Both the position numbers and the translations under genes were made by a program. The notes under the pieces were generated by a model that saw only the letters and a list, made by a program, of their open reading frames with translations, ran no database searches and was not told where the DNA came from. Shown here in pieces: positions 4,655 to 59,780 of a DNA stretch of 64,000 nucleotides. Numbering within the stretch: the first letter of the stretch is position 1; every line of letters starts with the position of its first letter. Source of the DNA: Thermodesulfobacteriota bacterium (GTDB lineage: Bacteria; Desulfobacterota; BSN033; UBA1163); NCBI GenBank assembly GCA_049514515.1, contig JBEKUZ010000004.1, positions 15,321 to 79,320 of the forward strand, given 5' to 3'.

Positions 4655-4712
4655 CCTCCCCCTCACCGCCTCCCTCTCCCCAGCGGGGCGAGGGGAAGGG
4701 TGAGGGCTTCAT
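4655..4712. repeat. GC-rich palindromic mini-element (CCCTCACC-GCC-TCCCTCTCCCC / GGGGCGAGGGGAAGGGTGAGGG)
   Basis: Near-perfect palindrome filling the 43-bp gap between the ABC ATPase stop and the TPP-enzyme start. Same family as the copy at 16483-16552. Confidence 0.7.
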
Positions 4713-5680
4713 CGCCGATCGGGATCAGGGTTTTCTTCACCCTTTGCAAACTCAATGAAGACATCCTCCAAATCGGTTTGTCCTAAGGTGACCTTTTTGA
4801 TCTCGACACCGCTCTGGGAAAGCAAGGCAATCAGGCTTCCCATTCTTCTTTCCCCATCATCTACTACGATCTCACATAGGGAGTTGGAAATCGTAAAATT
4901 AATCACACCGTCAGCACGGAGCAATTCGTCTTCTTGGATCCTCCCTTTAAATTCAACCTTTAACCGATCGCCGATCCGAACCATTCGTTTTAGGGCCTCC
5001 GAAGTTCCAATGGTAACGATCCTCCCTTCTTTCAGGAAGGCGATGCGACCGCAGAGATTTTCTGCCTCCTTCATATTATGAGTGGTGAGAAGGATGGTTA
5101 TCCCCTTTTGCCTATGAATTGAGAGAATCTCTTCTCGAATTCGTATGGAGACATCGGGGTCGAGGCCCACCGTGGGTTCATCAAGGAAGAGAACTTCCGG
5201 ATCGTTAATAAGGGATTTCGCAAGGGAGAGTCGCTGTTTGATCCCGGTGGACAGTTCGTCAAAAGGGATATTTTGGTATTCCCTCAGGTTGAAAAGATTG
5301 ATCAAAGTGTCAACCTTTGTCTCACGCTCTCTCCCTGTGAGGCCGTAGAGCATGCCGTAGTAGTGAAGGTTTTCCTTTACGGTCAAACTCCATAAGAAAT
5401 TGGCATTTCCGCTTACTATGTTCACCCTCTTCCTGATTTCATGTTCATCGTGGAGTCCGTCCATACCGAGGATTTGAACCTTGCCGCGGTCAGGGAGGAG
5501 TAAAGTGCAGAGAATCGACAATAGAGTGGTCTTACCAGCACCATTGGGACCCAGGATACCAAAGATCTCCCTTTCTTCGATCCGAAGGTCGACCCCTTTC
5601 AGGGCTTCCTTCTCCCGCTTCTTCCACCAGCCTGACCGGAAGGTCTTGAATATTCCCTCTGCTTCAATCGCTAACGCCAT
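4709..5680 (-). CDS. ABC transporter ATP-binding protein (ABC-2/drug-exporter type)
   Basis: Walker A GPNGAGKTT, ABC signature LSTGIKQRLSLA, Walker B LFLDEPTVGLD. Confidence 0.88.
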   Translation of the reverse strand: MALAIEAEGIFKTFRSGWWKKREKEALKGVDLRIEEREIFGILGPNGAGKTTLLSILCTLLLPDRGKVQILGMDGLHDEHEIRKRVNIVSGNANFLWSLTVKENLHYYGMLYGLTGRERETKVDTLINLFNLREYQNIPFDELSTGIKQRLSLAKSLINDPEVLFLDEPTVGLDPDVSIRIREEILSIHRQKGITILLTTHNMKEAENLCGRIAFLKEGRIVTIGTSEALKRMVRIGDRLKVEFKGRIQEDELLRADGVINFTISNSLCEIVVDDGERRMGSLIALLSQSGVEIKKVTLGQTDLEDVFIEFAKGEENPDPDRR

Positions 5681-5717
5681 TATACGTGTCCGTGATTCGT
5701 GACTGGTGTCCGTGGAA
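5681..5717. promoter_or_regulatory. CACGGACACG/CACGAATCACG motif abutting the ABC ATPase start codon
   Basis: On the minus strand ...CACGGACACCAGTCACGAATCACGGACACGTATA sits immediately before the ATG. Related copies at 27095-27124 and 53252-53300. Confidence 0.45.
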
Positions 5718-5955
5718 TCTTACTTCGGGTTCTCACTCCGCAATCCGCACTCTAAATTCCGCAATTTTAAAAGTATATTATGGATTTAGTGATTTGCCAA
5801 GGGGTTTTCAGATGCGGTTTTAATAAAATTGAAGACAACTGAAAGGAAATAAACACAGGGTGGCTAAAAAAACGATTTCTTTTTCTTTGAAGCTTGCCGA
5901 ATAGCCGCGATGATCCATTCTTTCAAGAATGACTTTCAGTATTAGTCGTCCCTCC

Positions 5956-13228: not shown

Positions 13229-16042
13229 ATGGAAAAGTTTATAGAGATTATCGGGGCCAAGTCCCACAACCTCAAGAATATCAACTGCAAAATTCCCAGG
13301 GGAAAGATTACCGTCATCACAGGCGTCTCGGGGTCGGGCAAATCAACCCTCGCTTTCGACACACTCTTCGCAGAAGGCCAGAGACGTTACATTGAATCCC
13401 TCTCCACTTATGCCCGGCAATTCTTAGAGAAGATGGACCGGCCTGATGTCGAAGCCATCCATGGAATCCCTCCTGCCATCGCCATCGAACAGAAAAACAG
13501 CGTCAAGAATGCTCGCTCCACGGTTGGAACAGCCTCTGAGATATATGATTACCTCAGGCTTCTCTTTGCTAAGATCGGTGAAGTCTTCTGCCCGGACTGC
13601 CACGTCAAAGTCTCAGGCGATACCGTGGAGGGTGTCGTAGAACAGATCTTGAGTCAATTTAAAGGAGTAAAGATTTTCATCCTCAGCCCGGTCTCTCTGG
13701 ACGATAGCCAGGAAAGAGAGCTTAAGGTAAAAGATCTCATCAAAAATGGATATTACCGAATTTGCGAGAAAGGCCAAATTCTTGATCTCACCAGCCTCTC
13801 TGCTTCAGAATTTCAACAAAGGTTTTCCCCCTCTTCCTCCCCTCTCCCACAAGGGGAGAGGGTGATGGAGAAGAAAGCTCTCTCCGTCCTCATTGACAGG
13901 CTTGTCTTAGAAGAGAAGGAAAGATCAAGGCTATCTGAAGCCATTCAGAAAGGGTTTCAAGTAGGGAATGGTAAAATTGAAGTGCTCACTGAACAGGGTA
14001 AGAGAATGACCTTCAACAGGAGCTTCTCCTGTAATCGCTGCGGACGAAATTTTTCAGAGCCCGAGCCTCTTCTCTTCTCGTTTAACAGCCCTCTCGGCGC
14101 CTGCCGCGCCTGCCAGGGTTTCGGCAGGATCATTGGGATCGATTGGCAGAAGGTGATCCCGGATCCGAAAAAGACATTGAAAGAAAAACCCTTTGCTCCC
14201 TGGAACACGCCGGCTTATGAAGACCTTTATGAATATCTATGGACGGCCTGCCGGAGGCACAAGATTCCAACCCAAAAACCCTTTGAAGAACTTCTCCCTC
14301 AACAGAAAGAGATTTTAGTCAACGGAAAAGGGGAGTTCATCGGCTTAAAAGGATTCTTTGAATGGATGGAAGGAAAGCGGTACAAAGTTCACTACCGGGT
14401 TTTTCTGAGTAAATACCGGGCCTATACCCCCTGCCCCACCTGTCACAATACCCGACTAAAAGAAGAAGCACTCTATGTGTTACTGGCGGGGAAAAATATT
14501 GCCGAGCTTTGCGACATGCCTATCTCCGACCTCCAGATGTTCTTCAAGAATCTGCCGATCAAAGACTTTCAAAAGAAGGTTGGAGAGCGCCTGCTTAAAG
14601 AGATTAACGACCGAATCGGATTCATGGTGGATGTCGGATTGGGATACTTAACCCTTTCCCGTCAAACCAGAACTCTCTCCAGCGGCGAATATCAGCGCAT
14701 CACATTGGCGAGGTCGCTCGGCTCCGCTCTGACTGAAACTCTCTATGTCTTGGATGAGCCGAGCATTGGCCTGCACGCAAGGGATACCCATCGCCTCCTT
14801 CGGTCCCTCCGGAAATTACGAGAAGGAGGAAATACAGTGGTCGTAGTGGAACACGATCCGGATGTGATACGAGCAGCCGATGAGGTCATTGACCTTGGCC
14901 CCGGGGCCGGAAGATCGGGAGGCTCTATGGTTTTTCAAGGAGGGCTGGAATCCCTTCTGCAAAACCAGGATTCCATTACAGCCCGCTACTTGCGAGACGG
15001 AACGGCCTCTGATCCAATCAGGTCTCTTAGAAAACCGCAAGGGTGGATTTCCATCCACAATGCACGGGAGCACAACCTTAAAGGAATCGATGTGAGAATC
15101 CCGTTGGGCGTAATGGTTTGCATCACGGGCGTCTCCGGAGCCGGAAAGACCACCTTGGTTCACAACATTCTATACTCAGGAGCAAAGGGCAATGGGAGCT
15201 CAGGCTTTGAAAAGGGAGCCTTCGACTCCATCAAAGGTCTCGATCAGATCCATGATCTCATCCTGGTCGATCAATCGCCCATTGGGAAAAGTCTTCGCTC
15301 AAACTCAGCCACCTATATCAAGGTATTCAGCGAGATTCGGGATCTTTTCGCCCAGACCCGGGAGGCCAAGCGATATGGATTCAAACCCCGCCATTTCTCT
15401 TTCAATACAGAAGGGGGCCGATGTGAAACCTGCCAGGGCGCGGGGTTTCAAGTTCTGGACATGCAATTCTTAGAAGATGTCATCATCACCTGTGAAACGT
15501 GTGAAGGGAAGAGATTCCGGCCTGAGATTCTGAAAGTGAAGTACCGAGATAAGAATATTTCAGAAGTGCTAAATATGACCGTTGATGATGCAATCGCCTT
15601 CTTCGAAAGCCATCACCGAATTCTGCAAAAACTTCAAACCCTGAAAGACGTGGGCTTAGGCTATCTCACCCTCGGCCAATCCACCAATACGCTGAGCGGG
15701 GGAGAATCCCAGCGTCTGAAACTGGCTCAGCATATCGGCCAAAGCCATGAGGGGAAGAGTCTCTTCATCTTTGACGAACCCACCACAGGACTCCACATGG
15801 CCGATGTCGAACTCCTTCTGATGACCTTTGAGAAACTTCTTTCCCAAGGCCATTCGATCATCGTGATTGAACACAACCTCGACCTCATCCGACGTGCAGA
15901 TTATATCATTGATTTGGGCCCTGAAGGAGGGGAAGAAGGAGGAAGGATCGTGGCCGAGGGCGATCTCAAAAAGATCATGGCCTCGCCGCAATCCTACACA
16001 GGGCAGTTCCTAAAACAACGCCTGAACGAAACAAAGGTTTAG
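13229..16042 (+). CDS. uvrA: Excinuclease ABC subunit A (UvrA)
   Basis: MEKFIEIIGAKSHNLKNI...GVSGSGKSTLAFDTLFAEGQRRYIESLSTYARQF. Two ABC ATPase modules, zinc-finger cysteines. Start trimmed to 13229 by alignment to the canonical UvrA N-terminus. Confidence 0.95.
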   Translation: MEKFIEIIGAKSHNLKNINCKIPRGKITVITGVSGSGKSTLAFDTLFAEGQRRYIESLSTYARQFLEKMDRPDVEAIHGIPPAIAIEQKNSVKNARSTVGTASEIYDYLRLLFAKIGEVFCPDCHVKVSGDTVEGVVEQILSQFKGVKIFILSPVSLDDSQERELKVKDLIKNGYYRICEKGQILDLTSLSASEFQQRFSPSSSPLPQGERVMEKKALSVLIDRLVLEEKERSRLSEAIQKGFQVGNGKIEVLTEQGKRMTFNRSFSCNRCGRNFSEPEPLLFSFNSPLGACRACQGFGRIIGIDWQKVIPDPKKTLKEKPFAPWNTPAYEDLYEYLWTACRRHKIPTQKPFEELLPQQKEILVNGKGEFIGLKGFFEWMEGKRYKVHYRVFLSKYRAYTPCPTCHNTRLKEEALYVLLAGKNIAELCDMPISDLQMFFKNLPIKDFQKKVGERLLKEINDRIGFMVDVGLGYLTLSRQTRTLSSGEYQRITLARSLGSALTETLYVLDEPSIGLHARDTHRLLRSLRKLREGGNTVVVVEHDPDVIRAADEVIDLGPGAGRSGGSMVFQGGLESLLQNQDSITARYLRDGTASDPIRSLRKPQGWISIHNAREHNLKGIDVRIPLGVMVCITGVSGAGKTTLVHNILYSGAKGNGSSGFEKGAFDSIKGLDQIHDLILVDQSPIGKSLRSNSATYIKVFSEIRDLFAQTREAKRYGFKPRHFSFNTEGGRCETCQGAGFQVLDMQFLEDVIITCETCEGKRFRPEILKVKYRDKNISEVLNMTVDDAIAFFESHHRILQKLQTLKDVGLGYLTLGQSTNTLSGGESQRLKLAQHIGQSHEGKSLFIFDEPTTGLHMADVELLLMTFEKLLSQGHSIIVIEHNLDLIRRADYIIDLGPEGGEEGGRIVAEGDLKKIMASPQSYTGQFLKQRLNETKV
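13826..13865. repeat. Palindromic mini-element inserted in-frame in uvrA (TCCCCTCTCCC-ACAA-GGGGAGAGGG)
   Basis: Encodes SPSSSPLPQGERV inside the UvrA variable region. Same core as the intergenic copies at 4655 and 16483. Confidence 0.7.
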
Positions 16043-16107
16043 GTTTAGGTTTAGGCTAAGATTAAGATTAAAACCTGAGATCCCTCAATCTTAACCTCAG
16101 CCTCAAC

Positions 16108-16368
16108 CTAAATCTCTGTTCTCTGTTTGATGCAGCTGAGCATCTGTTCGAGGCGATTCCGCTCAAATCCGACCATCACCTCGTTGCATGCAGTAATCAC
16201 CGGTACGCTTCGCGCACCAGAAATCTTCACCATCTCGTCCAATGCTGCCCGGTCTTTGGTCACATCGTACTCTGTAAATTTGTAGCCCTTTTGCGAAAGA
16301 AACTCTTTCGCCATCTTGCAATAGGGTCACGTCGGTGTCGAATAAACTTTGATTTCGTCTTCTGCCAT
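16108..16368 (-). CDS. Glutaredoxin-like selenoprotein (UGA-encoded Sec in a U-P-Y-C active site)
   Basis: The track ORF 16108-16314 starts at MAKEF. Extending upstream in frame gives MAEDEIKVYSTPT-TGA-PYCKMAKEFL..., i.e. a Grx/NrdH CPYC motif with the first Cys replaced by an in-frame TGA (16327-16329). GGAGG RBS 8 nt before the ATG at 16368. SECIS-like hairpin follows the UGA. Confidence 0.75.
16285..16326 (-). promoter_or_regulatory. SECIS-like stem-loop immediately 3' of the in-frame UGA
   Basis: mRNA UGA-CCCUAUUGC-AAGAUG-GCGAAAG-AGUUU-CUUUCGC-AAAAGGG. 7-bp upper stem with a 5-nt G/U-containing loop, plus a lower stem CCCUAUUGC/GCAAAAGGG, at the spacing of bacterial SECIS elements. Confidence 0.5.
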
Positions 16369-19753: not shown

Positions 19754-22231
19754 ATGGCAAAAGACCCAAACAGAGTCATTTCCGAGCTACATAAAGGAAG
19801 ATATATACCCATCCAAAACATAAAGAGAAAGAAAATAGCTACCCATTTAGCAGATCGGAAAACAACTCGACCCCTCAAAAACTCGGCCATTACCATGCCC
19901 TTACTTGCTAAACAGATGGAGGAGGCACTGCGTCGGAGTGAGGAGAAATACCGAACCATCATTGAGAACATGCAGGAGGGTTATTATGAGCTTGACCTTG
20001 CCGGTCGTTTTACCTTTGTTAATGACGCGCTTTGCAAACATCTCGGATATACCAAAGAGGAATTGGTCGGGACGCGCGCCCGACAGTATCAAGATGAAAC
20101 AACCACTAAGAAAATGCATCAGATATTCACCGAACTCTACAGAACAGGGGAACCGGTTAAGGCATTAGAGTCGGAATATATCAGAAAAGACGGCACCAAA
20201 GGGACTTACGAACTGTCGGTATCTCTTCTACGGGATGCACAAGGCAAACCCATCGGATTCCGGGGTGTTTCTCGGGACATCACCGAGCGCAAGCAGACGG
20301 AGGAGGCACTGCGAAGAAGTGAGGAGAAATACCGAACCATTCTTAAAAACATGGAAGAGGGTTATTACGAAGTAGACCTTGCCGGTAATTTCACCTTTGT
20401 CAATGATGTCATCTCCAGACATCTCGGGTATACCAAAGAGGAATTGATCGGGATGAACTACCGGAAGTATGCGAGCGAGGAAACCTCTAAAGAGTTGTAT
20501 CAGCACTTTAGCGAACTCTACCGAACAGGCCAACCGATTAAGCCATTCGCGGTGGAATATATCAGGAGAGACAGAACCAAACTGATTTCTGAAATTTCGG
20601 TATCTCTTATAAGAGACCTCGAAGGGAAGCCGATCGGGTTTCGTGGAATCTCGCGCGATATCACCGAGCGCAAACAAGCAGAGGAGACATTGCGGAGAAG
20701 CGAGGAGAGATACCGAACCATTATCGAGAACCTCCAGGACGGCTATTTTGAGAACGACCTTGCCGGTAATTTAACCTTTGTGAACGATATCATCTGCCGA
20801 AATCTCAGATATACCAGAGAGGAACTAATCGGGATGAATTACCGGCAGTATACGGACGAGGAAGACCGTAAAAAGGTGCTTCAACTTTATGGCGAACTGT
20901 ACAGAACAGGGCAGCCTGTTAAGTCATTGGAAGTAAAACATGTCAGAAAAGATGGGGCCAAACTGTTTGCCGAGATCTCGTCATCTCTTATACGGGATTC
21001 GGAAGGAAAACCGATCGGGTTTCGAGGCATCTCGCATAACATCACCGAGCGCAAGCAGGCAGAAGAGGAGAAGTTATCTCTTCAAGAGCAGCTTCGGCAG
21101 GCGCAGAAAATGGAGGCCGTTGGCCAGTTGGCAGGGGGGGTGGCTCACGACTTTAACAACCTCCTGACCGTTATCAAGGGCTACAGCCAACTTTCCCTCT
21201 TCGACCTTAAAGAAGATAACCCCCTTTGGGGAAACATCCAAGAGATTGAAAAAGCCAGTCAACGGGCAACGGATCTAACTCGCCAACTTTTAGCCTTCAG
21301 CCGTCGTCAGATCTTGGACCTCAAAGTGGTCGATCTCAACGTCCTCCTAGAAGATCTGGAAAAGATGCTGCGCCGGATCATCGGCGAGGACATTACATTG
21401 GCCACTCTTCTATCCGAAGGTTTAGGAAAGGTCAAAGTAGATCCGGGTCAGATCGAGCAAGTGATCCTCAATTTAGCCGTAAACGCCAGGGATGCAATGC
21501 CCTCCGGCGGGAAACTCACCATCGAAACGGCGAATGTGGAGTTGGACGAAGAGTATGCCCATGCCCATGTCAATGTGGCCCCGGGTCGATATGTGAGGCT
21601 TTCCGTCAGCGATACGGGGGTTGGGATGACACCGGAGGTGAAAGAAAAGGTCTTCGAGCCCTTCTTTACGACTAAAGAAAAAGGAAAGGGGACCGGATTG
21701 GGCCTCTCCATGGTTTACGGAATTGTCAAGCAGAGCAATGGGAATATCTGGCTTTATAGTGAACCGGGGCGTGGGACCACCTTCAGGATTTATTTTCCAA
21801 GGGCGGAGGAAGAGGCAGATGGTCTTCATAAGGAAGAAGTAACGGATGTCTTTCCGAGGGGTAGTGAGACAATCCTTCTGGTGGAGGACGACGAATTGGT
21901 GCGAAACCTGGCAACCCGACTTTTAGAGCAGCAGGGCTACAGGGTCTTGAAGGCAACCAACGGCCAAGAGGCGCTGCGCGTCGCGAAGGAACATGTCGGA
22001 GAAACGATCCACCTCCTGCTGTCTGACATTGTGATGCCTCAGATGGGTGGAAAAGAGTTGTCCGATTGGCTTAAAATCTCGCGGCCCAACGTCAAGGTCC
22101 TTTATACCTCGGGTTATGCGGACGATGCGATTGTCCACCACGGTGTGCTGGACCCGGGGACCCATTTCTTGCAGAAACCTTTCTCTCTCAAAACGTTATC
22201 ACACAAGGTACGCGAAGTATTGGATGAGTAA
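19754..22231 (+). CDS. Hybrid sensor histidine kinase with multiple PAS domains and C-terminal receiver domain
   Basis: Repeated PAS units (EEALRRSEEKYRTI...GYTKEEL...YRTGQP...), HisKA (VAHDFNNLLTVIKGY), HATPase_c (GTGLGLSMVYGIV), REC (ILLVEDDELVRNL...LLSDIVMPQMGG). Confidence 0.9.
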   Translation: MAKDPNRVISELHKGRYIPIQNIKRKKIATHLADRKTTRPLKNSAITMPLLAKQMEEALRRSEEKYRTIIENMQEGYYELDLAGRFTFVNDALCKHLGYTKEELVGTRARQYQDETTTKKMHQIFTELYRTGEPVKALESEYIRKDGTKGTYELSVSLLRDAQGKPIGFRGVSRDITERKQTEEALRRSEEKYRTILKNMEEGYYEVDLAGNFTFVNDVISRHLGYTKEELIGMNYRKYASEETSKELYQHFSELYRTGQPIKPFAVEYIRRDRTKLISEISVSLIRDLEGKPIGFRGISRDITERKQAEETLRRSEERYRTIIENLQDGYFENDLAGNLTFVNDIICRNLRYTREELIGMNYRQYTDEEDRKKVLQLYGELYRTGQPVKSLEVKHVRKDGAKLFAEISSSLIRDSEGKPIGFRGISHNITERKQAEEEKLSLQEQLRQAQKMEAVGQLAGGVAHDFNNLLTVIKGYSQLSLFDLKEDNPLWGNIQEIEKASQRATDLTRQLLAFSRRQILDLKVVDLNVLLEDLEKMLRRIIGEDITLATLLSEGLGKVKVDPGQIEQVILNLAVNARDAMPSGGKLTIETANVELDEEYAHAHVNVAPGRYVRLSVSDTGVGMTPEVKEKVFEPFFTTKEKGKGTGLGLSMVYGIVKQSNGNIWLYSEPGRGTTFRIYFPRAEEEADGLHKEEVTDVFPRGSETILLVEDDELVRNLATRLLEQQGYRVLKATNGQEALRVAKEHVGETIHLLLSDIVMPQMGGKELSDWLKISRPNVKVLYTSGYADDAIVHHGVLDPGTHFLQKPFSLKTLSHKVREVLDE
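19918..21051 (+). repeat. Three tandem 378-bp repeats encoding PAS modules
   Basis: Units at 19918-20295, 20296-20673 and 20674-21051, each starting GAGGAGGCACTGCG.AG.AG.GAGGAGA.ATACCGAACCAT and ending ATCACCGAGCGCAAGCAG.C. Roughly 75-80% nucleotide identity. Confidence 0.85.
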
Positions 22232-24193: not shown

Positions 24194-24565
24194 ATGAATC
24201 CAAAAAAAATTTTGATTGTCGATGACGAAGTCGACCTGGTGGAAACCGTCCGTTTCCCCTTGGAGATCGAGGGATATCATGTCCTGGTTGCTTACAACGG
24301 CGAAGATGCCTTGAGTCAGGCTCGCAAAGAAAGCCCGGACCTGATCCTCCTGGACCTCATGCTTCCAAAATTGGATGGGTATAAGGTATGCCGACTATTG
24401 AAATTTGACGAAAGATATAAGCACATCCCCATCCTCATGTTGACCGCCAAGACTCAGGAAAAGGATAAAGTCATCGGAATGGAGACAGGGGCGAACGAGT
24501 ATATCACCAAACCCTTTGATATGGACTATTTGTTGAAGAAGGTGAAGGAGTATTTGAGTAAATGA
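24194..24565 (+). CDS. Single-domain response regulator (CheY-like receiver)
   Basis: ILIVDDEVDLVE...DLILLDLMLPKLDG...K. GGAGG RBS. Confidence 0.85.
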   Translation: MNPKKILIVDDEVDLVETVRFPLEIEGYHVLVAYNGEDALSQARKESPDLILLDLMLPKLDGYKVCRLLKFDERYKHIPILMLTAKTQEKDKVIGMETGANEYITKPFDMDYLLKKVKEYLSK

Positions 24566-24647
24566 AGTTCAAAGTTCAGAGTTCGGAGATTTGGGTCAAT
24601 GGCCCCGAACTCCGAACTACTTACTCCGAACTTTAGTTGGTGAGAAC

Positions 24648-25865
24648 ATGCCGACTTTTAAGTATCGTGTGAGGGACAGATTAGGGAAGGCCATGACCGG
24701 GACGATCGAGGCTCAGACCGTCGAGGTGGCAGGGAATCACCTTTACCAGAGGGGATACTTCCCCATCGCCATTGAAAAGGAGTCGGCTTCGGCCTCCCTC
24801 GATTTGTCGGACTTCTGGAAACGATTCAACAAAGTGAAGCCGGAGGAAATAATCGTCTTCAGTCAGCAGCTTTCCACTTTATATAAAGCAGGATTACCCT
24901 TGCTTACAGGGTTAAAAGGTCTGAGAGACCAGACATTGAATCAACGGTTTAAAAAAGTACTGGAAGAAATCGATCTCCAGGTGGAAGGAGGAAATACACT
25001 TTTTGGGGCTATGTCCAAGCACCCGGATGTCTTTTCTGCGGTTTATCTCAATATGATCCGGGCCGGTGAAGCTTCAGGAAGGCTGGGCGAATCGCTCGAC
25101 CGTTACGCTGCCCTTGCCGATCGAGAATTGAGGAGTCGCCAAAAAGTAAACGAGGCAACCCGTTATCCTAAGATTGTCGTCGTTTCAGTAATCATCGCAT
25201 TTGTCGTCTTGCTCTCTTTTGTCATCCCGCGGTTTGCCCAGGTTTTTTCCCAATTTAACACACCCCTGCCCTTGCCCACCCGGATAATGATCGGGGTTAA
25301 TAACCTGTTTCATGATTTTTGGTATCTTATTTTACCCGTATTTGTGTTCATACCGATCCTGCTGAGACGCTATATTCATACGGAGAAAGGAAAGATCTTC
25401 TGGGATAGCCTCAAGACAAGAATTCCTGGAATCGGCCATCTCTTCGTCATCTCTGCCCTCTCACGGTTTGCTCATACCTTTGTCATGCTAAACAAGAGTG
25501 GTATTCCTATCCTTCAGACTCTCGAAGTCTCTTCCACTACCATCAACAACGTTGTTATTTCTCAATCGATTCGAGAAATCAGCCAACAGGTAAGAGAAGG
25601 AGGAAGCCTGGCGGATTCGATGAGCAAGAGTGGAAGGTTTACCCCTCTCGTTATCCAGATGGTAGGGGTGGGGGAGACGACAGGAACATTGGATGAGATG
25701 CTGGTGAGAATAACGGAATACTATGATATCGAGCTGGAAAACGCGATCAAAAAGATGACTACTTACATTGAACCTGCTTTGACGTTGTTTATGGGTGTTG
25801 TGGTTTTGCTTCTGGCACTGGCCGTGTTCTTGCCATGGTGGAATATGGCCAAACTATTCAGATAA
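24648..25865 (+). CDS. pilC: Type IV pilus/T2SS platform protein PilC/GspF family (MshG-like)
   Basis: Two GspF repeats, three TM segments. The start MPTFKYRV matches PilC N-termini. Confidence 0.9.
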   Translation: MPTFKYRVRDRLGKAMTGTIEAQTVEVAGNHLYQRGYFPIAIEKESASASLDLSDFWKRFNKVKPEEIIVFSQQLSTLYKAGLPLLTGLKGLRDQTLNQRFKKVLEEIDLQVEGGNTLFGAMSKHPDVFSAVYLNMIRAGEASGRLGESLDRYAALADRELRSRQKVNEATRYPKIVVVSVIIAFVVLLSFVIPRFAQVFSQFNTPLPLPTRIMIGVNNLFHDFWYLILPVFVFIPILLRRYIHTEKGKIFWDSLKTRIPGIGHLFVISALSRFAHTFVMLNKSGIPILQTLEVSSTTINNVVISQSIREISQQVREGGSLADSMSKSGRFTPLVIQMVGVGETTGTLDEMLVRITEYYDIELENAIKKMTTYIEPALTLFMGVVVLLLALAVFLPWWNMAKLFR

Positions 25866-26320
25866 GGTCCGAGGAAAGATGTTTAAGAAGATGCAAATTA
25901 ATCCTGCAACAGTAACCACAGCGAAGATCGTCATTCCCGCCCCGATTTTCACCGGGATAAACTCCAACGGGAATCCAGACGTCGTCCCTGCGAAAGCAGG
26001 GAACCAGTTTTCAAATACTGGATTCCCCCGTGTCAAACACGGGGCAGGCTTAATCAAACCGGGAATAACAGAACGGCTAGGTCTTATATTGCCGTACATA
26101 AAAAATGATTTGGCAGCAGTGGCCTTCGATTTGCGCCGGATTTTATTGCCTCTGACCATTTGGTCATGCCATGCGTGGGTGGCCCCTACGTTCAGGTTGT
26201 ACCATGGTTTGGCAGCCGCACTTCACCCACAGGATGAGGCGCTAAAACCAAAATTCTTGAACGCAAATCCGAGATCCCAACCCAAGTTCGGGATGACAAA
26301 AAGAGAAGAAACGGACAGTC

Positions 26321-26425
26321 ATGTCATGCTGAACCCTGAAGGTGTCATGCCGAACTCTGAATGTGTTATGCCGAACGCCCAAAGTGTCATGCCGAACGCC
26401 CAAAGTGTCATGCCGAACTTGTTTC
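26321..26425 (+). repeat. Tandem 21-bp repeat array (GTGTCATGCCGAACGCCCAAA x about 5)
   Basis: Units at 26342, 26363, 26384 and 26405, with a degenerate copy at about 26321. Ends in the palindrome ATGCCGAA-cttg-TTCGGCAT. Lies about 100 bp upstream of the first pseudopilin gene. Confidence 0.8.
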
Positions 26426-26529
26426 GGCATCTCTCCAGGGCAGGCTTGTTTCAGCATTTGGTTCATTCTTTTCCCGCTGTCAGCAGACGCAGTATTAATA
26501 AACCTTCGGACCCTCGACCCCTTGAACCC

Positions 26530-26967
26530 GTGAACTCTTCGGGGTTCACCGTAATCGAACTCATCGTGGTCATAGTCATCATCGGAATTTTGGCTGCTAC
26601 TGTGCTGCCCAGGATCAATTTTGGCTCCGTCTCCTCTCAAACCTCCGTGGCCGGAGCAGCGAATATGGTCCGCTCCGACATCCGATATACCCAAGAATGC
26701 GCGATGGCCAGTCGGGTTTCTAAAGCTATCAGCTTCACGTCGGGCCAATCTTCATATACCTTCCCGGCGACCAACCCTTCTACCAGCAGTCTTGATCCTA
26801 CGGGACGACTTCAAGGAGCAGCGATTGGCACTACAGTCCAATTTACTTTTAATTCTCTTGGGGAACCAAGTACATCCTCCGTAGGGGTTTGGACAGTGAG
26901 TGTCTCTGACGGGGTAACGACAATACCAATTACTATAACCCAATATACAGGAGAGGTGGCTTATTGA
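26530..26967 (+). CDS. Prepilin-type N-terminal cleavage/methylation-domain protein (minor pilin/pseudopilin)
   Basis: GTG start giving (M)NSSG|FTVIELIVVIVIIGILAA. The track ORF from 25795 is rejected as a single protein. No clear RBS, so the start is uncertain. Confidence 0.55.
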   Translation: MNSSGFTVIELIVVIVIIGILAATVLPRINFGSVSSQTSVAGAANMVRSDIRYTQECAMASRVSKAISFTSGQSSYTFPATNPSTSSLDPTGRLQGAAIGTTVQFTFNSLGEPSTSSVGVWTVSVSDGVTTIPITITQYTGEVAY

Positions 26968-27094
26968 TTGCGGATATCGGAATGCGGATTTCAAAATAAA
27001 AATCAGTTTGTTTGATGCAAACAGGTAAGGATGGTTATGAAAAAGAAAGATCTAAATGAGAGAACAAGAAGCTTCATCCACTGTTTGTCGTACT

Positions 27095-27124
27095 GCGGAC
27101 ACGGAACACGGACACGGTCACGTT
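27095..27124 (+). promoter_or_regulatory. CACGGACACG motif copy immediately upstream of the pseudopilin start
   Basis: GCGGACACGGAACACGGACACGGTCACGTTATTTT-ATG. Related to 5681-5717 (reverse complement) and 53252-53300. Confidence 0.45.
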
Positions 27125-27129
27125 ATTTT

Positions 27130-27516
27130 ATGAATAGAAGGGGCTTCACACTTATTGAAATTATCGTCTTGATCGTGATGGCGGGTATCCTCATCTCCGC
27201 TATTGTCGTCCCTTTTACAACCGGCATTCGAACAAGTAATAAGCCTGAAATGGTAGCGACAGCCATGTACCTTGCGCACCAGAAGATGGAAGAATTGATG
27301 AAATTTAATTATTGCCAGGCACCCGATTTAACTCCTGGTACATATACACTGCCGGCGCCACCTATTGCTGGCTACACGTGGCAATGGGTGATTTCCTATG
27401 TGACCAATACTTTCGCTGCCTCAGGGTCGGATGTCGGTTATAAAATGATTCAGGTCACTGTAAAAGACCCACAAGGCAGTACTTATAATGTCTATTCGGT
27501 TATTACAAGATTTTAA
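27130..27516 (+). CDS. Prepilin-type minor pilin/pseudopilin
   Basis: MNRRG|FTLIEIIVLIVMAGILI. The start is trimmed from the track ORF (27031). Confidence 0.7.
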   Translation: MNRRGFTLIEIIVLIVMAGILISAIVVPFTTGIRTSNKPEMVATAMYLAHQKMEELMKFNYCQAPDLTPGTYTLPAPPIAGYTWQWVISYVTNTFAASGSDVGYKMIQVTVKDPQGSTYNVYSVITRF

Positions 27517-27540: not shown

Positions 27541-28128
27541 ATGACTAATTATCCCGAAATCCAAAATCCAAAATCCCCCTCACCCTCTCCCTCCCCCTCC
27601 AGGGGGGAGGGTTGGGGAGGCGATAGGGGTTTCACCCTAATAGAAATCATCGTTGTGATTGTCATTTTGTCTATTGTCTCGGTCATCACTATTAAGTTCT
27701 TGGTTGATAGTTTGAGAGTCTATACGATGACAGTCAATCAAAAGAGTCTTTTCGACGAAGGGAAATTAGCATTGGAACAGATGTGCAGAGGTATCCGGGA
27801 TGCAAATAGCATTACAGGAGTTACTGCCACTTCGATAACTTTTGTGAGAGACAATGCAACAGCTAACGATGCTGTAGGAGAAACAATTAGTTATCAACTC
27901 AACGCAGGTGTAGTCCAAAAAGTGAAAGCCGGCAACGGCTACGCAATGGCCAGAAACGCTACTACATTTGCCGTGACGAATGCTACAAATGAGATCCTTC
28001 TACAATTAACACTTCAATTGGCAAGCGGAGAGAATGTAACCCTGCAGACAAAGATTTATCCCAAAAACCTTGCAAAAAGTCTAACTTATAAGAGCTTCTA
28101 CTCAAACTGGATGGAGGCATACCAGTAG
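27541..28128 (+). CDS. Prepilin-type minor pilin/pseudopilin with extended leader
   Basis: ...RG|FTLIEIIVVIVILSIV. The 29-aa leader contains SPSPSPSPSRGEGWGG encoded by a palindromic mini-element (27574-27625). Confidence 0.7.
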   Translation: MTNYPEIQNPKSPSPSPSPSRGEGWGGDRGFTLIEIIVVIVILSIVSVITIKFLVDSLRVYTMTVNQKSLFDEGKLALEQMCRGIRDANSITGVTATSITFVRDNATANDAVGETISYQLNAGVVQKVKAGNGYAMARNATTFAVTNATNEILLQLTLQLASGENVTLQTKIYPKNLAKSLTYKSFYSNWMEAYQ

Positions 28129-34694: not shown

Positions 34695-34760
34695 AAGGGG
34701 TCGAGGGGTCGAACCACCCAAACTTGAACCCTGGAATCCTTAGAATCCTCGAACCCTTTT
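34695..34760. repeat. GGGGTCGAGGGGTCGAACC...CTTGAACCCTGGAATCC repeat-family copy
   Basis: Shares CTTGAACCC / GGAATCCT / GGGGTCGAG blocks with 26500-26545 and 59636-59780. Confidence 0.6.
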
Positions 34761-41618: not shown

Positions 41619-41664
41619 CCAATAAACACCCTTTCCTTCTCTCCGTTGAGAGAAAGGAAAGGGT
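41619..41664 (-). terminator. Intrinsic terminator after pilin gene 1
   Basis: Minus strand: CACCCTTTCCTTTCTCTC-aacgg-AGAGAAGGAAAGGGTG followed by TTTATT. Confidence 0.6.
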
Positions 41665-41703
41665 GAGGAGAACATTTTGGATATAAGTTTGCCTATCCCT
41701 CTA

Positions 41704-42075
41704 TTACCACGTAGTATGTGCCGGACAGGTAATATTGGGGGGGGTAGCTGCATCTATTGAAAAACTATACGTAGCCGCTCCCACGGTTATAGTCAGATAG
41801 GTAGCATCTGAGCCAGCAACTTGAACTCCCTGCACTCCGGCAGAACCAACAATGCCCGTCCAATCCTCCGTAGTGGTTGTAACGTTCAATACGCGAGCTG
41901 CATACAATAGGGTATTCGCGGCTCTAAGGCCTCCTAATACCCCCCTTGCCGTGCCATCTTGAGCTTGAGTTGTCAAATCGACATATCTTGGGATGGCAAC
42001 TGCCGCAAGAATCCCGATGATCACAATAATTACGATTAACTCAATTAACGTGAAGCCCCTCTGATGTCTTAGCAT
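41704..42075 (-). CDS. Type IVa major pilin (MshA/PilA-like), copy 1
   Basis: MLRHQRG|FTLIELIVIIVIIGILAAVAIP. AAGGAG RBS. The start is trimmed to match the 7-aa leader of copy 2. Confidence 0.85.
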   Translation of the reverse strand: MLRHQRGFTLIELIVIIVIIGILAAVAIPRYVDLTTQAQDGTARGVLGGLRAANTLLYAARVLNVTTTTEDWTGIVGSAGVQGVQVAGSDATYLTITVGAATYSFSIDAATPPNITCPAHTTW

Positions 42076-42169
42076 ACATGCTCCTTTCCAAATCTTCAAG
42101 ATAAAACCCTTCCTGTAACGGAATTTTCTCTAAAATGAACTGCAGTCGTAAGCAACAACAGAGCACCTG

Positions 42170-42216
42170 CAATAAACACACCCTTTCTTTCTCTCCGTTA
42201 AGGGAAAGGAAAGGGT
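42170..42216 (-). terminator. Intrinsic terminator after pilin gene 2 (duplicate of the 41619-41664 terminator)
   Basis: Same long GC-rich hairpin plus TGTGTTTATT on the minus strand. Confidence 0.6.
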
Positions 42217-42255
42217 GAGGAGAACATTTTGGATATAAGTTTGCCTATCCCTCTA

Positions 42256-42627
42256 TTACCACGTAGTATGTGCCGGACAAGTAATAATGGGGGGAGTACC
42301 CGTATCCATTGAAAAACTATACGTAACCGCTCCCACGGTTATAGTTAGATACTGAGTACCTGAACCAGAAACTTGAACTCCCTGCAATCCGGCAGAACCA
42401 ACAATGCCCGTCCAATCCTGCGTAGTGGTTGTAACGTTCAATATGCGAGCTGCATATAACAGGGCATTCGCGCTTCTAAGGCCTCCTAATATCCCCCTTG
42501 CTGTGCCATCTTGAGCTTGAGTTGTCAAATCGACATATCTTGGGATGGCAACTGCCGCAAGAATCCCGATGATCACAATGATGACGATCAACTCAATTAA
42601 TGTGAAGCCCTTCCGATTTTTAAGCAT
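42256..42627 (-). CDS. Type IVa major pilin (MshA/PilA-like), copy 2
   Basis: MLKNRKG|FTLIELIVIIVIIGILAAVAIP. About 85% identical to copy 1. GGAGGAG RBS. Confidence 0.85.
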   Translation of the reverse strand: MLKNRKGFTLIELIVIIVIIGILAAVAIPRYVDLTTQAQDGTARGILGGLRSANALLYAARILNVTTTTQDWTGIVGSAGLQGVQVSGSGTQYLTITVGAVTYSFSMDTGTPPIITCPAHTTW

Positions 42628-42722
42628 ATTTTCTCCTCCTTGTCGAGAATTTATTGGTATTCACTCCATTTTGCACAATTTAATATCAGCTTGGAAATTC
42701 CTTGTCAAGTGAATTAGTTAAC

Positions 42723-47618: not shown

Positions 47619-47728
47619 CTTATCCCTCCATTAACCTCTCGTCCATCCCCTCTCCTCTGCCTGGAAGGCAGGGAAAACAGCCCACCCGTTTGGGCAATGG
47701 TCACGGTGACGAGGCCCGTTTCGGACAA

Positions 47729-47876
47729 TGAACGATGGACAACGAACAAATAAACAAAAAAATAATAAGCTGTTCATCGTTTATCGTTTCATGTTCATCG
47801 TCCCTAACAACATGGGCATCCTCACCCTTGCCCGCGGACAGAACCTGTTTTCAATGAAATCGTTCACGATGAACTT
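47729..47876. promoter_or_regulatory. Array of TGTTCATCG / CGATGAACA motif repeats (3' of yqeC, 5' of the secreted-protein gene)
   Basis: ATGAACGATGGACAACGAACA; GCTGTTCATCGTTTATCGTTTCATGTTCATCGT (about 10-bp periodicity); palindrome GTTCACGATGAAC at 47862-47874; GTCACGGTGAC at 47708-47718. Confidence 0.55.
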
Positions 47877-48725: not shown

Positions 48726-48810
48726 GCGTCTTCTCTTTTGTTCACTGCCTATAGTCTATTGCCCACGGTTCATTGTTCATCGCCCATTGTTCATGGTTGA
48801 TCGTTCGAAA
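48726..48810. promoter_or_regulatory. Second array of GTTCATCG-type repeats upstream of yqeC
   Basis: CGATAAATGATGAACAGTG; TTGTTCACTG; CGGTTCATTGTTCATCGCCCATTGTTCATGGTTGATCGTTCG; also CGTGACAAACACGTGAC. Confidence 0.55.
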
Positions 48811-52804: not shown

Positions 52805-53239
52805 ATGAGCGTGGAAAAGAGGAAGAAGTCCATCGCAGTGATCGACGGTCAGGGTGGGGGGATCGGAAGTGCCGTCATCAAGCGCCTGCAGGAAAAGGTT
52901 GCCGGAGAGGCTGAAATCATCGCTTTAGGAACAAATGCAATGGCAACGGGAGCGATGCTGAAAGCGGGCGCCAACAAAGGCGCTTCCGGAGAGAATGCCA
53001 TTGTCCAAACCGTAAAAACCGTGGATATCATCATCGGGACTGCCGGCATCGTGTTGGCCAATTCAATGATGGGGGAGTTGACCCCAACAATGGCAGAGGC
53101 CATTGCTTCGTCACTTGCGATGAAATTTCTGCTCCCGCTAAAAATGCAGGACGTTGAAATCGTTGGTGCGCCGAAGGAACCCCTTCCCCATTTGATTGAT
53201 CAACTGATCAGACGGATCCAAGAATTGGTTGGAACTTGA
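52805..53239 (+). CDS. DUF3842-family protein
   Basis: MSVEKRKKSIAVIDGQGGGIGSAVIKRL. The start is trimmed because a TTGACA-N16/17-TATATA promoter (52707-52742) lies inside the track ORF. Confidence 0.5.
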   Translation: MSVEKRKKSIAVIDGQGGGIGSAVIKRLQEKVAGEAEIIALGTNAMATGAMLKAGANKGASGENAIVQTVKTVDIIIGTAGIVLANSMMGELTPTMAEAIASSLAMKFLLPLKMQDVEIVGAPKEPLPHLIDQLIRRIQELVGT

Positions 53240-53251
53240 AGGGAAAAGCTC

Positions 53252-53300
53252 CGACACGAATCACGCCTGCCTACCCGTAGGCAGGGACACGGACACGTAA
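53252..53300 (+). promoter_or_regulatory. CACGAATCACG–hairpin–GACACGGACACGT motif upstream of the cooT-like gene
   Basis: GACACGAATCACG-CCTGCCTACCCGTAGGCAGG-GACACGGACACGTAAAT, followed by an AGGAGG RBS and the ATG at 53316. Confidence 0.45.
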
Positions 53301-53315
53301 ATTTAGGAGGAAAAA

Positions 53316-53504
53316 ATGTGTGAGGCCAATGCCTATCTAGTAAAAGAAGGAAGGGAAGAATTGGTGCTAGAAGACATCTCCATCCTTCGGCCGGAAAAAG
53401 ATGAACTCTATCTTCAAAATATCTTTGGTGAACAAAAACGGATCAAGGCCCGAATCAAAGAGATGAACCTGATCGATCATCGCATCGTTTTGGAACAAGG
53501 CTAA
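53316..53504 (+). CDS. CooT-like small nickel-binding protein
   Basis: 62 aa starting MCEANAYL (N-terminal Cys2). Size and pattern resemble the CooT family. Confidence 0.55.
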   Translation: MCEANAYLVKEGREELVLEDISILRPEKDELYLQNIFGEQKRIKARIKEMNLIDHRIVLEQG

Positions 53505-53712
53505 ATCGATCCGTTGCCGTGACTCGTCAATCGTGACGGGATGAAGTCTGAATGGGCTGAGAAACAACGATTTACGAATCGCAAAACACGCATTGCGAAT
53601 GAAGAGGCCACGAAAGCCTTTACATCTACAGAAGTAGAAAAAGTCTTCGTGGTCTTTTTATTTTGATCCCCTCCCCAAAGAGGGGGTAAGGGGATCAAAA
53701 AGGAGAAAATAT

Positions 53713-59623: not shown

Positions 59624-59635
59624 AACCCCTCTAAA

Positions 59636-59780
59636 AGGATTCGAGGATTCAAGGGTCCAAGGGGTCGAGTGTCAACATTGAATTCATTTTTACAATGGCT
59701 AAACATTGATCCACTCCGTCCATCCCTTAGTGTCACTGGAATCCTTGAACCCTAGCCCCCCTTGAACTCTTCAAAGGGTA
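59636..59780. repeat. Composite inverted-repeat element of the GGAATCCTTGAACCC / GGGGTCGAG family
   Basis: GGATTCGAGGATTCAAGGGTCCAAGGGGTCGAG ... GGAATCCTTGAACCCTAGCCCCCTTGAACTCTTC. The two arms are in inverted orientation. Related to 26500-26545 and 34695-34760. Confidence 0.6.

Follow-up and report, generated by a model that had tools for sequence, protein, structure and literature searches.

In a 64,000-nt stretch of contig JBEKUZ010000004.1 (hereafter the window), whose host is an uncultured Syntrophales/Syntrophaceae bacterium (Thermodesulfobacteriota), a short motif recurs upstream of three unrelated start codons. This motif is not a single box but a tandem array of three to five units of the form (N)NNCACG, with the consensus (G)GACACG, and it is one of many tandem-repeat families in the genome. 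The array is a cis-acting, start-proximal element and not a promoter, and at two of the three sites (sites 2 and 3) it is retained above the level of synonymous sites. The reading we prefer, though tentatively, is that the CACG array may be a lineage-specific interspersed tandem repeat of messenger RNA (mRNA) leaders and intercistronic spacers, acting in RNA near the ribosome-loading site. The closest species-level genome is the metagenome-assembled genome MFD04492.bin.2.7, whose DUF3842 protein is 97% identical to that of the window, and contigs identical to that of the window are present in several metagenomes. Related loci and homologues are referred to below by L and P numbers.

The three copies, described in an earlier note on this DNA, are all present, and reading them in full gives the following features:
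5685–5715, minus strand: site 1, CACG array CCACGGACACCAGTCACGAATCACGGACACG, followed by TATA and by the ATG at 5680–5678.
5685–5715, minus strand: units of site 1, CCACG GACACC AGTCACG AATCACG GACACG, with no Shine-Dalgarno sequence.
4709–5680, minus strand: ABC-2-type ATPase gene (Pfam ABC_tran).
27095–27122, plus strand: site 2, CACG array GCGGACACGGAACACGGACACGGTCACG, followed by TTATTTT and by the ATG at 27130.
27095–27129, plus strand: units of site 2, GCG GACACG GAACACG GACACG GTCACG, with the TTATTTT tail.
ATG at 27130, plus strand: pseudopilin gene (Pfam), prepilin motif MNRRGFTLIEI.
53251–53265, plus strand: 5' half of the site 3 array, CCGACACGAATCACG (CCGACACG AATCACG), after the DUF3842 gene, which ends at 53239.
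53266–53285, plus strand: hairpin CCTGCCTACCCGTAGGCAGG (CCTGCCTAC-cc-GTAGGCAGG), a palindromic element inside the array.
53286–53297, plus strand: 3' half of the site 3 array, GACACGGACACG (GACACG GACACG), with a TAAATTT tail extending to 53304.
53305–53310, plus strand: AGGAGG, the ribosome-binding site of cooT.
53316–53504, plus strand: CooT, 62 residues (ATG at 53316, Pfam).

The motif is clearly non-random, as had been supposed. Exact CACGGACACG occurs three times on the two strands of the window, compared to an expected mean of 0.023 and a maximum of 1 in 300 dinucleotide shuffles; allowing one mismatch raises the number to six, where 1.35 are expected, and every one of the six lies inside the three sites. 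Each exact copy lies on the sense strand, 4, 7 or 18 nt 5' of a start codon, and the downstream genes, identified by Pfam, encode an ABC-2-type ATPase, a pseudopilin and CooT. The 10–11-mers thought to be shared by the copies hold for CACGGACACG, found at all three sites, but exact CACGAATCACG is limited to sites 1 and 3. We counted 12 arrays with at least three CACG blocks at 6–7 nt spacing in 500 kb of related DNA, compared to 0.1 expected, eight of the 12 being orthologs of one single site. No tRNA-related element was found, and no curated Rfam covariance model matched the window or six related loci. The tandem nature of the motif, its place among many families and the replacement of families at the same sites had been missed by the earlier reading.

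The anatomy of the element was derived from 27 non-redundant arrays. They hold two to five CACG blocks, most often four, and successive blocks are spaced by 6 nt (37 cases) or 7 nt (24 cases), with both spacings occurring within single arrays. Two-nucleotide linkers are always G followed by A, T or G, while three-nucleotide linkers are free. T makes up 6% of array bases, TT or TA directly follows the final CACG in 16 of the 27 arrays, and the T/A-rich tail 3' of the array is typically TTATTTT. The arrays are unstructured, with RNA fold z-scores of +0.72, –0.69 and –0.22 for sites 1, 2 and 3, respectively, and the folds of orthologous leaders, in which a structured RNA or riboswitch was sought, have z-scores near 0 as well. 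Given these scores, the lack of an RNAalifold structure and the lack of an Rfam match, a structured RNA or riboswitch was rejected. An intrinsic terminator was likewise rejected, as the window arrays themselves form no hairpin and none was found at site 1; at the cooT site a hairpin with a T run is seen only in a few relatives (L043, L044, L014). As a separate observation, the CACG arrays contain almost no T and hence no stop codons, so gene callers extend open reading frames (ORFs) too far through them, which matters for annotation.

On the sense strand, the ribosome-binding region follows the arrays at a distance of a few to a few tens of nucleotides. Contrary to what had been proposed, the distance between array and start codon varies, being 4, 7 and 18 nt in the window and up to 260 nt elsewhere. 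An ending at 4–7 nt from the ATG with no Shine-Dalgarno sequence is peculiar to sites 1 and 2, while in most other copies AGGAGG follows 8–60 nt later. The absence of a Shine-Dalgarno sequence is confirmed for site 1, where the array, TATA and the ATG directly follow one another. For site 2 the same claim is valid for the ATG at 27130, but an upstream in-frame ATG at 27037 has AAGGA.

A profile search of 594 kb of related DNA yielded further CACG arrays before a thiolase-like gene (L040, L043, L044), before cbiM (L034, L036) and at L013/L015, L022 and L066, the last being a perfect (CACGGTT)x3.5 array. This amounts to at least 12 independent array loci in about 0.6 Mb of Syntrophales DNA, plus metagenome matches. 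In a metagenome scan with a 15-nt pattern, about 100 of the 120 matches listed are high-GC chance matches or coding sequence, and about eight are members of the family; the metagenome copies precede putative rubredoxin-, aldehyde dehydrogenase-, glutaredoxin- and lumazine-synthase-like genes, named from N-terminal sequences, and one of them (L321) belongs to a pseudopilin ortholog. A scan of viral contigs with a 14-nt pattern gave chance matches among those listed (at least 120).

At every copy with readable neighbours it is CACG, and not CGTG, that lies on the coding strand of the flanking genes. These copies are the ones at the ABC ATPase, pseudopilin, cooT, thiolase-like and cbiM genes, and at L013/L015 (where polarity was judged only from an ATG about 20 nt downstream), L066, L022, L221, L289, L253 and L286. 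The orientation follows the gene (minus strand at site 1, plus strand at sites 2 and 3) rather than one replication direction. The suggestion of a cis-regulatory element is retained in part: the array is cis-acting, start-proximal and oriented with the downstream gene, but it does not act as a promoter.

Before the thiolase-like gene an inverted pair, 5'-(CGTG)n...(CACG)n-3', lies between co-directional genes, with the array as its 3' arm. Such pairs are formed by the CACG family in L040, L043 and L044, while the three window copies are unpaired; the predicted hairpins are stable (–38.7 kcal/mol and z = –4.0 in L044, z = –4.6 in L040). The pairing of cis (CGTG)n arms with the array in L040 and L044 is compatible with a rather improbable alternative, already raised in the earlier note as an sRNA target, in which the array is the target of a trans-acting antisense RNA carrying (CGUG)n. 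GcvB pairs with C/A-rich enhancers upstream of ribosome-binding sites, and the array, too, is a C/A-rich single-stranded tract beside such a site. However, linkers differ in length and sequence between copies within one genome, leaving no continuous single seed, and no free-standing antisense array was found in the 1.25 Mb searched.

A subset of relatives has retained the array ahead of the orthologous genes, and neither of the refuting conditions named in the earlier note (copies scattered with no positional bias, absence before the orthologs) applies. We compared the cooT site across 75 relatives and found the CACG array in L004, L005, L007, L008, L014, L025, L034, L036, L043 and L044, with DUF3842 identity among the array-bearing relatives going down to 72%. 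An alignment of this site from 11 species shows at least 90% conservation in the CACG columns and varying linkers; in the more distant array-bearing species four-fold degenerate sites of CooT are about 35–50% identical. Similarly, at the pseudopilin gene the L208 locus, whose protein is 77% identical, has GCACGGACACGGAACACGGAGACGGTCACGTTATTTT-ATG, matching window site 2 in 33 of 35 nt, compared to 21 of 42 identical four-fold sites in the gene and an upstream flank that cannot be aligned. The CACG array precedes the pseudopilin gene in at least five lineages.

The hairpin at site 3 had been described as a part of the motif. It is indeed present there, as well as in L004 and L007, but L005 lacks it: in L005 the array is CACGAATCACGGACACGTT, the same string as at site 1. 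Because the L005 array runs uninterrupted, the hairpin is, on this comparison, a later, separate insertion. Hairpins of this type, CCTGCCT(A/G)C-N2-4-G(T/C)AGGCAGG, are nested in arrays at unrelated loci (window 53266–53285, L004, L007, L019, L205, L331), inside the CACG array in the window and inside a TGCGGA array in L205 and L331. The CCTGCCT hairpin looks like a mobile element resembling repetitive extragenic palindromic (REP) sequences, which targets or tolerates arrays.

The leader of the ABC ATPase gene allows the array to be placed relative to a promoter. Two further features are located there:
5734–5766, minus strand: TGCGGA(A/T) tandem array TTGCGGAATTTAGAGTGCGGATTGCGGAGTG, at the 5' end of the same leader.
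5772–5800, minus strand: sigma-70-like promoter TTGGCA-N17-TATACT, 10 of 12 consensus matches.

The promoter block GGCAAATC...TAATATACT is invariant in eight species, and the leader 3' of it varies. Site 1 lies about 60–90 nt downstream of this promoter, which places it inside a 5' untranslated region of about 90 nt, i.e., within the transcript. The TGCGGA array and the CACG array of this leader are not complementary and do not pair; a TGCGGA-type array also follows the promoter in L205, L331 and L333/L334. Two other promoter candidates at site 1 were discarded, a TATAAT overlapping the ATG and having no –35 box, and a sigma-54 promoter (TGGCAC-N5-TTGC) with unsuitable spacing. Separately, the 17-nt promoter spacer GGCAAATCACTAATTCCATAATATACT is almost invariant in the eight species (including L204–L206 and L330–L333) with varying surroundings, and may contain an operator at which the ABC/TPP-enzyme/NUDIX operon is actually regulated.

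The location of the arrays bears directly on the least probable of the explanations considered, a promoter of an extracytoplasmic function (ECF) or other alternative sigma factor with a CGTA/CGTT –10 core, as the earlier note had put forward. Most arrays do end with CGT followed by an A/T-rich stretch, and GGAAC is present in site 2. Still, no –35 element of the GGAAC or GAAC type is found 16–17 nt 5' of CGT; GGAAC occurs only in site 2, is not conserved and is separated from CGT by 13 nt, and in the aligned arrays CACG units stand where the –35 box should be. Moreover, site 1 has its own conserved upstream promoter and lies downstream of it, sites 2 and 3 lie between co-directional genes, and at sites 1 and 2 a CGT-containing –10 box would be only 3–7 nt from the ATG, with no usable transcript possible. 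This sigma-factor explanation was dropped.

It is very unlikely that the arrays are CsrA/RsmA sites, A(N)GGA, repressing translation. ACGGA and GCGGA are frequent in the window copies, and the site 1 leader contains five GGA. But orthologous arrays have GGG, GGT or GAA in place of GGA, none is left in L043, L025 and L066, and the GGA motifs are not exposed in hairpin loops, as there is no hairpin. The consensuses of IHF, NikR and CooA were also compared with the motif and do not match it.

Taken as a target in RNA, for instance the translational operator suggested in the earlier note, the array might act as follows. A U-poor, non-self-pairing tract would present CACG every 6–7 nt where the 30S subunit loads, and at sites 1 and 2 it would occupy the Shine-Dalgarno position itself. 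A hypothetical multimeric single-strand-binding protein could read the spaced CACG blocks, much as TRAP and HutP read spaced triplets; where an upstream (CGTG)n partner is present, it could pair in cis and sequester the tract in a hairpin. Either route would tune translation initiation or the stability of the downstream cistron. The invariant four-nucleotide blocks, free linkers of 2–3 nt and mixed 6/7-nt spacing fit single-strand recognition by a multimeric protein. They agree less with a continuous antisense duplex, or with a phased operator in double-stranded DNA.

The latter possibility, an operator array in DNA coated by a repeat-reading protein (a ribbon-helix-helix repressor or a nucleoid protein) that blocks or modulates transcription, seems improbable. 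The omega protein binds WATCACW heptads and MetJ binds metboxes, and the heptamers AATCACG, GATCACG and GGTCACG resemble the omega heptads. The downstream genes have no common function, as would be the case for a global factor, and global regulators of the IHF/HU type have been proposed for arrays in Geobacter (PMC2700814). On the other hand, mixing of 6- and 7-bp spacing in one array breaks the helical register, the arrays lie 60–90 nt past the promoter at site 1 and between cistrons elsewhere rather than over promoters, and sense polarity is unexpected for a DNA operator.

Different tandem families replace one another at the same position next to the translation start. At the ABC ATPase site, examined in eight species, the CACG array is present in three (the window, L205 and L331), where it ends exactly 4 nt 5' of the ATG with no Shine-Dalgarno sequence. 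The leaders of L204 and L330 have GGGTTCGAGG//GAACCCTGGAAC and a Shine-Dalgarno-like GGTGGAG, those of L333/L334 have the hairpin TGCGGAAT//ATTCCGCA, and in that of L206 (TGGTTTA)n//(AAACCAGAT)n forms an almost perfect hairpin (–45 kcal/mol). In other relatives a CCCC...GGGG hairpin occupies the cooT site, or the spacer is lacking altogether; DUF3842 and cooT abut or overlap in many relatives.

A second hairpin family, CCCCTCNCCCC...GGGGNGAGGGG, is observed in intercistronic spacers of the window (approximately 4667–4711, 27576–27611 and approximately 53664–53702) and of relatives (L006, L011–L013, L015, L016, L027, L042, L208, L209), and in many relatives it, rather than the CACG array, separates DUF3842 from cooT.

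For the pseudopilin gene, upstream DNA of 118 homologues was read from translations of over-extended ORF calls:
CACG array, peptide HGHGTRTRSRYF: 5 of 118 entries, two being alternative calls of the window gene, which leaves four lineages; L321 is a fifth.
TCCGCAW array, peptide SAFRNPHSAIG: 18 of 118.
GAGTTCG//CTCCGAAC hairpin: 25 of 118.
GAATCCT family: 5 of 118.
TGCGGAAT//ATTCCGAAT: 5 of 118.
Window, 26968–26992, plus strand: TGCGGAT-type array TTGCGGATATCGGAATGCGGATTTC (Tandem Repeats Finder, TRF: 26969–26989, period 7).

The HGHGTRTRSRYF peptide is seen in the over-extended ORF calls of P0181, P0209 and P0222, and L209, with an 83% identical pseudopilin, has yet other content at the array position. 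The families are scattered across the clustering of the pseudopilin proteins, which is of low resolution, as only about 124 residues align. In the window, the TTGCGGATATCGGAATGCGGATTTC array directly follows the stop codon (TGA, 26965–26967) of the preceding pseudopilin-like gene, about 100 nt before site 2.

The true start of the pseudopilin gene is uncertain. The ORF of site 2 is open upstream, in frame, to ATGs at 27031 and 27037, and given the AAGGA Shine-Dalgarno sequence of the latter, the array may be translated as a long prepilin leader. In L321 the canonical pseudopilin ATG is ATT, so the ORF must begin upstream of the array; likewise, P0154, P0155, P0157, P0198, P0219, P0224, P0240 and L321 have no Met at –5 and their ORFs begin upstream (MNKYSAFRNPHSAIGKRGF..., MMHGHETRTRSRYFIANNGF...). 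Judging by these ORFs, since they start upstream, in several pseudopilin orthologs tandem arrays are absorbed into the cleaved prepilin leader peptide. The upstream ORF of site 2 (27031–27129) begins with MKKKDLNERTRSF, resembling the MKKRELKEKTK and MEKRDLKERTKSFALKVIKAVEMLPK starts in relatives (P0131, P0170, P0236), and may be a remnant of a small gene of the four-helix-bundle type.

Several of these observations weigh against a role of the array in RNA near the ribosome-loading site. The site 1 leader is approximately neutral, being identical at 74 of 113 positions compared to 99 of 130 four-fold sites. The orthologous sites of relatives have quite different families, or lack a spacer, and therefore the CACG sequence is dispensable for these genes. 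The distance to the start codon is also highly variable, from 4 to 260 nt. In some pseudopilin orthologs the array lies within the translated leader peptide. One copy, in L218, has no downstream gene start; it sits at a contig end and is uninformative on polarity. Finally, four metagenome copies at different loci, next to different genes (L218, L221, L253 and L289), share a block of 75–90 nt, composed of ..GTCACCCTCGAACGATGAAAATCAATAAGGT, the CACG array and TTATTTTCTAA, with no RNAalifold consensus structure and no Rfam match. This block is probably a longer subfamily of the CACG repeat, and it looks like a dispersed mobile repeat.

The main rival explanation, which we regard as possible but on the unlikely side, is that the arrays are selfish or neutral interspersed repeats, either remnants of small non-autonomous mobile elements or products of lineage-specific slippage, which accumulate in short spacers near gene starts, the only places that tolerate them, with no host function. 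In one version of it, the tandem subrepeats are binding sites of a recombinase or transposase and the arrays are ends or remnants, solo or inverted. The four copies sharing 75–90 nt at unrelated loci speak for it, and so do the coexistence of many families with different units in the window, swaps of families at a single orthologous site that do not track the protein tree, small hairpin elements nested in arrays, and patchy presence among close relatives. In addition, insertion sequence elements of Geobacter metallireducens lie at a fixed distance from such arrays (PMC2700814). Nevertheless, insertion alone does not explain the consistent sense polarity of the CACG arm, inspection of orthologous loci revealed neither target-site duplications nor terminal inverted repeats, and no transposase is linked to the arrays. 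Moreover, CACG is kept while the linkers vary (33 of 35 nt against 50% at synonymous sites), which points to recognition rather than decay.

Other degenerate arrays abound in the spacers of the window, e.g., AGGTTT/TAAGAT, AAGTTCA with CCGAACT, TGCGGAT, AAATCCA, GAATCCT/CGAACCC and GTTCATC. Out of 33 TRF arrays with a period of 5–9, 17 lie within spacers, which constitute 14.7% of the window. Arrays are found in 10 of 32 co-directional spacers compared to one of ten convergent or divergent ones, a difference that is suggestive only, since TRF misses arrays of mixed period; an unbiased ranking of 4-mer arrays was confounded by palindromic words and coding repeats. Inverted pairs of degenerate heptamer arrays (AGGTTT/TAAGAT, AAGTTCA//CCGAACT, GTTCATC, GAATCCT/CGAACCC) are located at 16035–16127, 24565–24632, 47722–47801 and 59635–59760, and further pairs at 48761–48806 and 34696–34758. 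Many inverted pairs in the window fold strongly (z from –4 to –8), the fold being more stable on the sense strand in five of six; for the tested pairs among those just located, which form long hairpins, z ranges from about –1 to –6. In most of these tested pairs the 5' arm is G/U-rich, the 3' arm is C/A-rich and the sense-strand fold is the more stable one, with the exception of 16030–16135.

One could speculate, with little confidence, that the CACG array and its sister families (TCCGCAW, CCGAACT, GAATCCT and others) are exchangeable leader cassettes, each read by its own oligomeric single-strand RNA-binding protein, and together constitute a genome-wide post-transcriptional code for ribosome access in Syntrophales, perhaps also in Geobacter and Beggiatoaceae. 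If true, a swap of cassettes at a gene start would rewire regulon membership.

Further repeats in the window and in metagenomes should be mentioned. A 21-nt unit, TGTCATGCCGAACGCCCAAAG, is repeated 4.6 times at 26322–26418, ahead of what is probably the true start of a pseudopilin-like gene (ORF 25795–26967, with the N_methyl motif at residue 247), and its last copy forms the hairpin ATGCCGAAC..TTCGGCAT. A 381-nt unit, repeated three times with 75% matches at 19913–21058 inside an 825-residue ORF (19754–22231), probably corresponds to repeated protein domains, because its length divides evenly into codons. At 41660–42100 and 42212–42650, two small minus-strand ORFs of 131 and 123 residues are covered by a tandem duplication (period 552 nt), many 13-mers being identical between the copies. 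Perfect (GGGCAC)n arrays are present in unrelated high-GC metagenome contigs (L215, L219, L226, L255, L256, L280, L283, L297, L317, L318, L320) and also in low-GC L270 and L271, frequently with GAGATCGGGCAC...CACGTTTACGGG flanking them; the L270 arrays are an inverted pair that encloses an AT-rich loop. Hence CACG-type hexamer arrays may be far more widespread than Syntrophales.

The kind of element to which the CACG family belongs has already been described in Beggiatoaceae, Geobacter and cyanobacteria and is poorly understood. In the searchable literature the motif string gave only unrelated matches in eukaryotic primers, and the CACG family itself was not found. We know of no function ever shown for start-proximal hexa- or heptamer arrays in Beggiatoaceae, cyanobacteria or Geobacter.

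Cyanobacterial short tandemly repeated repetitive (STRR) sequences are tandem heptanucleotide intergenic arrays with several families per genome; they are usually longer and near-perfect and have no known rule of start-proximal polarity, while CACG arrays are short and degenerate. In the TRAP and HutP systems of Bacillus subtilis, short invariant blocks of single-stranded RNA are separated by non-conserved spacers of 2–3 nt (TRAP) or 4 nt (HutP), and there are TRAP sites that extend over the region of translation initiation, so that ribosomes are blocked. The CACG block is not (G/U)AG, and there are 3–5 repeats instead of 9–11; the resemblance concerns a possible mode of working and not family membership. 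REP sequences and bacterial interspersed mosaic elements (BIME) are small interspersed palindromic elements of intra-operonic spacers, with nested insertions and possible roles in mRNA stability. CACG arrays share with them the interspersed location in spacers, patchiness among relatives and nested insertions, but the window copies are non-palindromic, unfolded and built of tandem subrepeats, with no RAYT-type transposase linked; it is the hairpin at 53266–53285 that fits a REP-like element.

In Geobacter metallireducens, families of three to five degenerate tandem units (GGACCGG, GTTGCTYN, TCTCCGTS, MTYCTGA) have been described, with dozens of arrays per genome, often in inverted pairs at variable distance, absent from a sister species (Aklujkar, 2009; PMC2700814). 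They are found between genes and sometimes within them, and were read as DNA sites of the IHF/HU type (PMC2700814). The CACG arrays are similar in having several degenerate tandem families, many loci and inverted pairs, and TCCGTG, which is complementary to CACGGA, is found within the Geobacter class 2 unit TCTCCGTG. However, the lineage differs at the phylum level, as do the unit lengths (7–9 nt compared to 6–7 nt) and sequences, and this is a likeness in form; the polarity of Geobacter arrays relative to genes was not analysed.

The closest likeness in position is to the TAACTGA repeats of marine Beggiatoaceae, which form sets of 2–6 tandem 7-nt copies, mostly forward, just upstream of start codons (MacGregor, 2015; PMC4679880). 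They often occupy the Shine-Dalgarno position, related heptamers interrupt some of the sets, no common function links the genes that follow, and an RNA-binding protein has been proposed (PMC4679880). The CACG arrays, too, consist of short tandem direct units before genes with no functional theme; they point forward wherever the flanking genes can be read, and only at sites 1 and 2 do they end 4–7 nt from the ATG with no Shine-Dalgarno sequence. They differ in the unit, (G)GACACG, which is degenerate with only CACG fixed and has a mixed period of 6/7 nt, and in that most copies are followed by a normal Shine-Dalgarno sequence, mostly lacking after TAACTGA repeats. Moreover, several unrelated unit families swap at one site here, while related heptamers are rare in Beggiatoaceae, and some CACG copies, unlike TAACTGA repeats, are arms of inverted pairs. 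The question whether such arrays are regulators, stabilisers or parasites can be tested with a handful of orthologous leaders. To the known systems the CACG family adds a defined repeat in a widespread uncultured group of syntrophs, which is clearly polarised with respect to the transcript strand and at two sites is better conserved than synonymous positions, as well as the replacement of families at the translation start, sometimes even inside a cleaved leader peptide.

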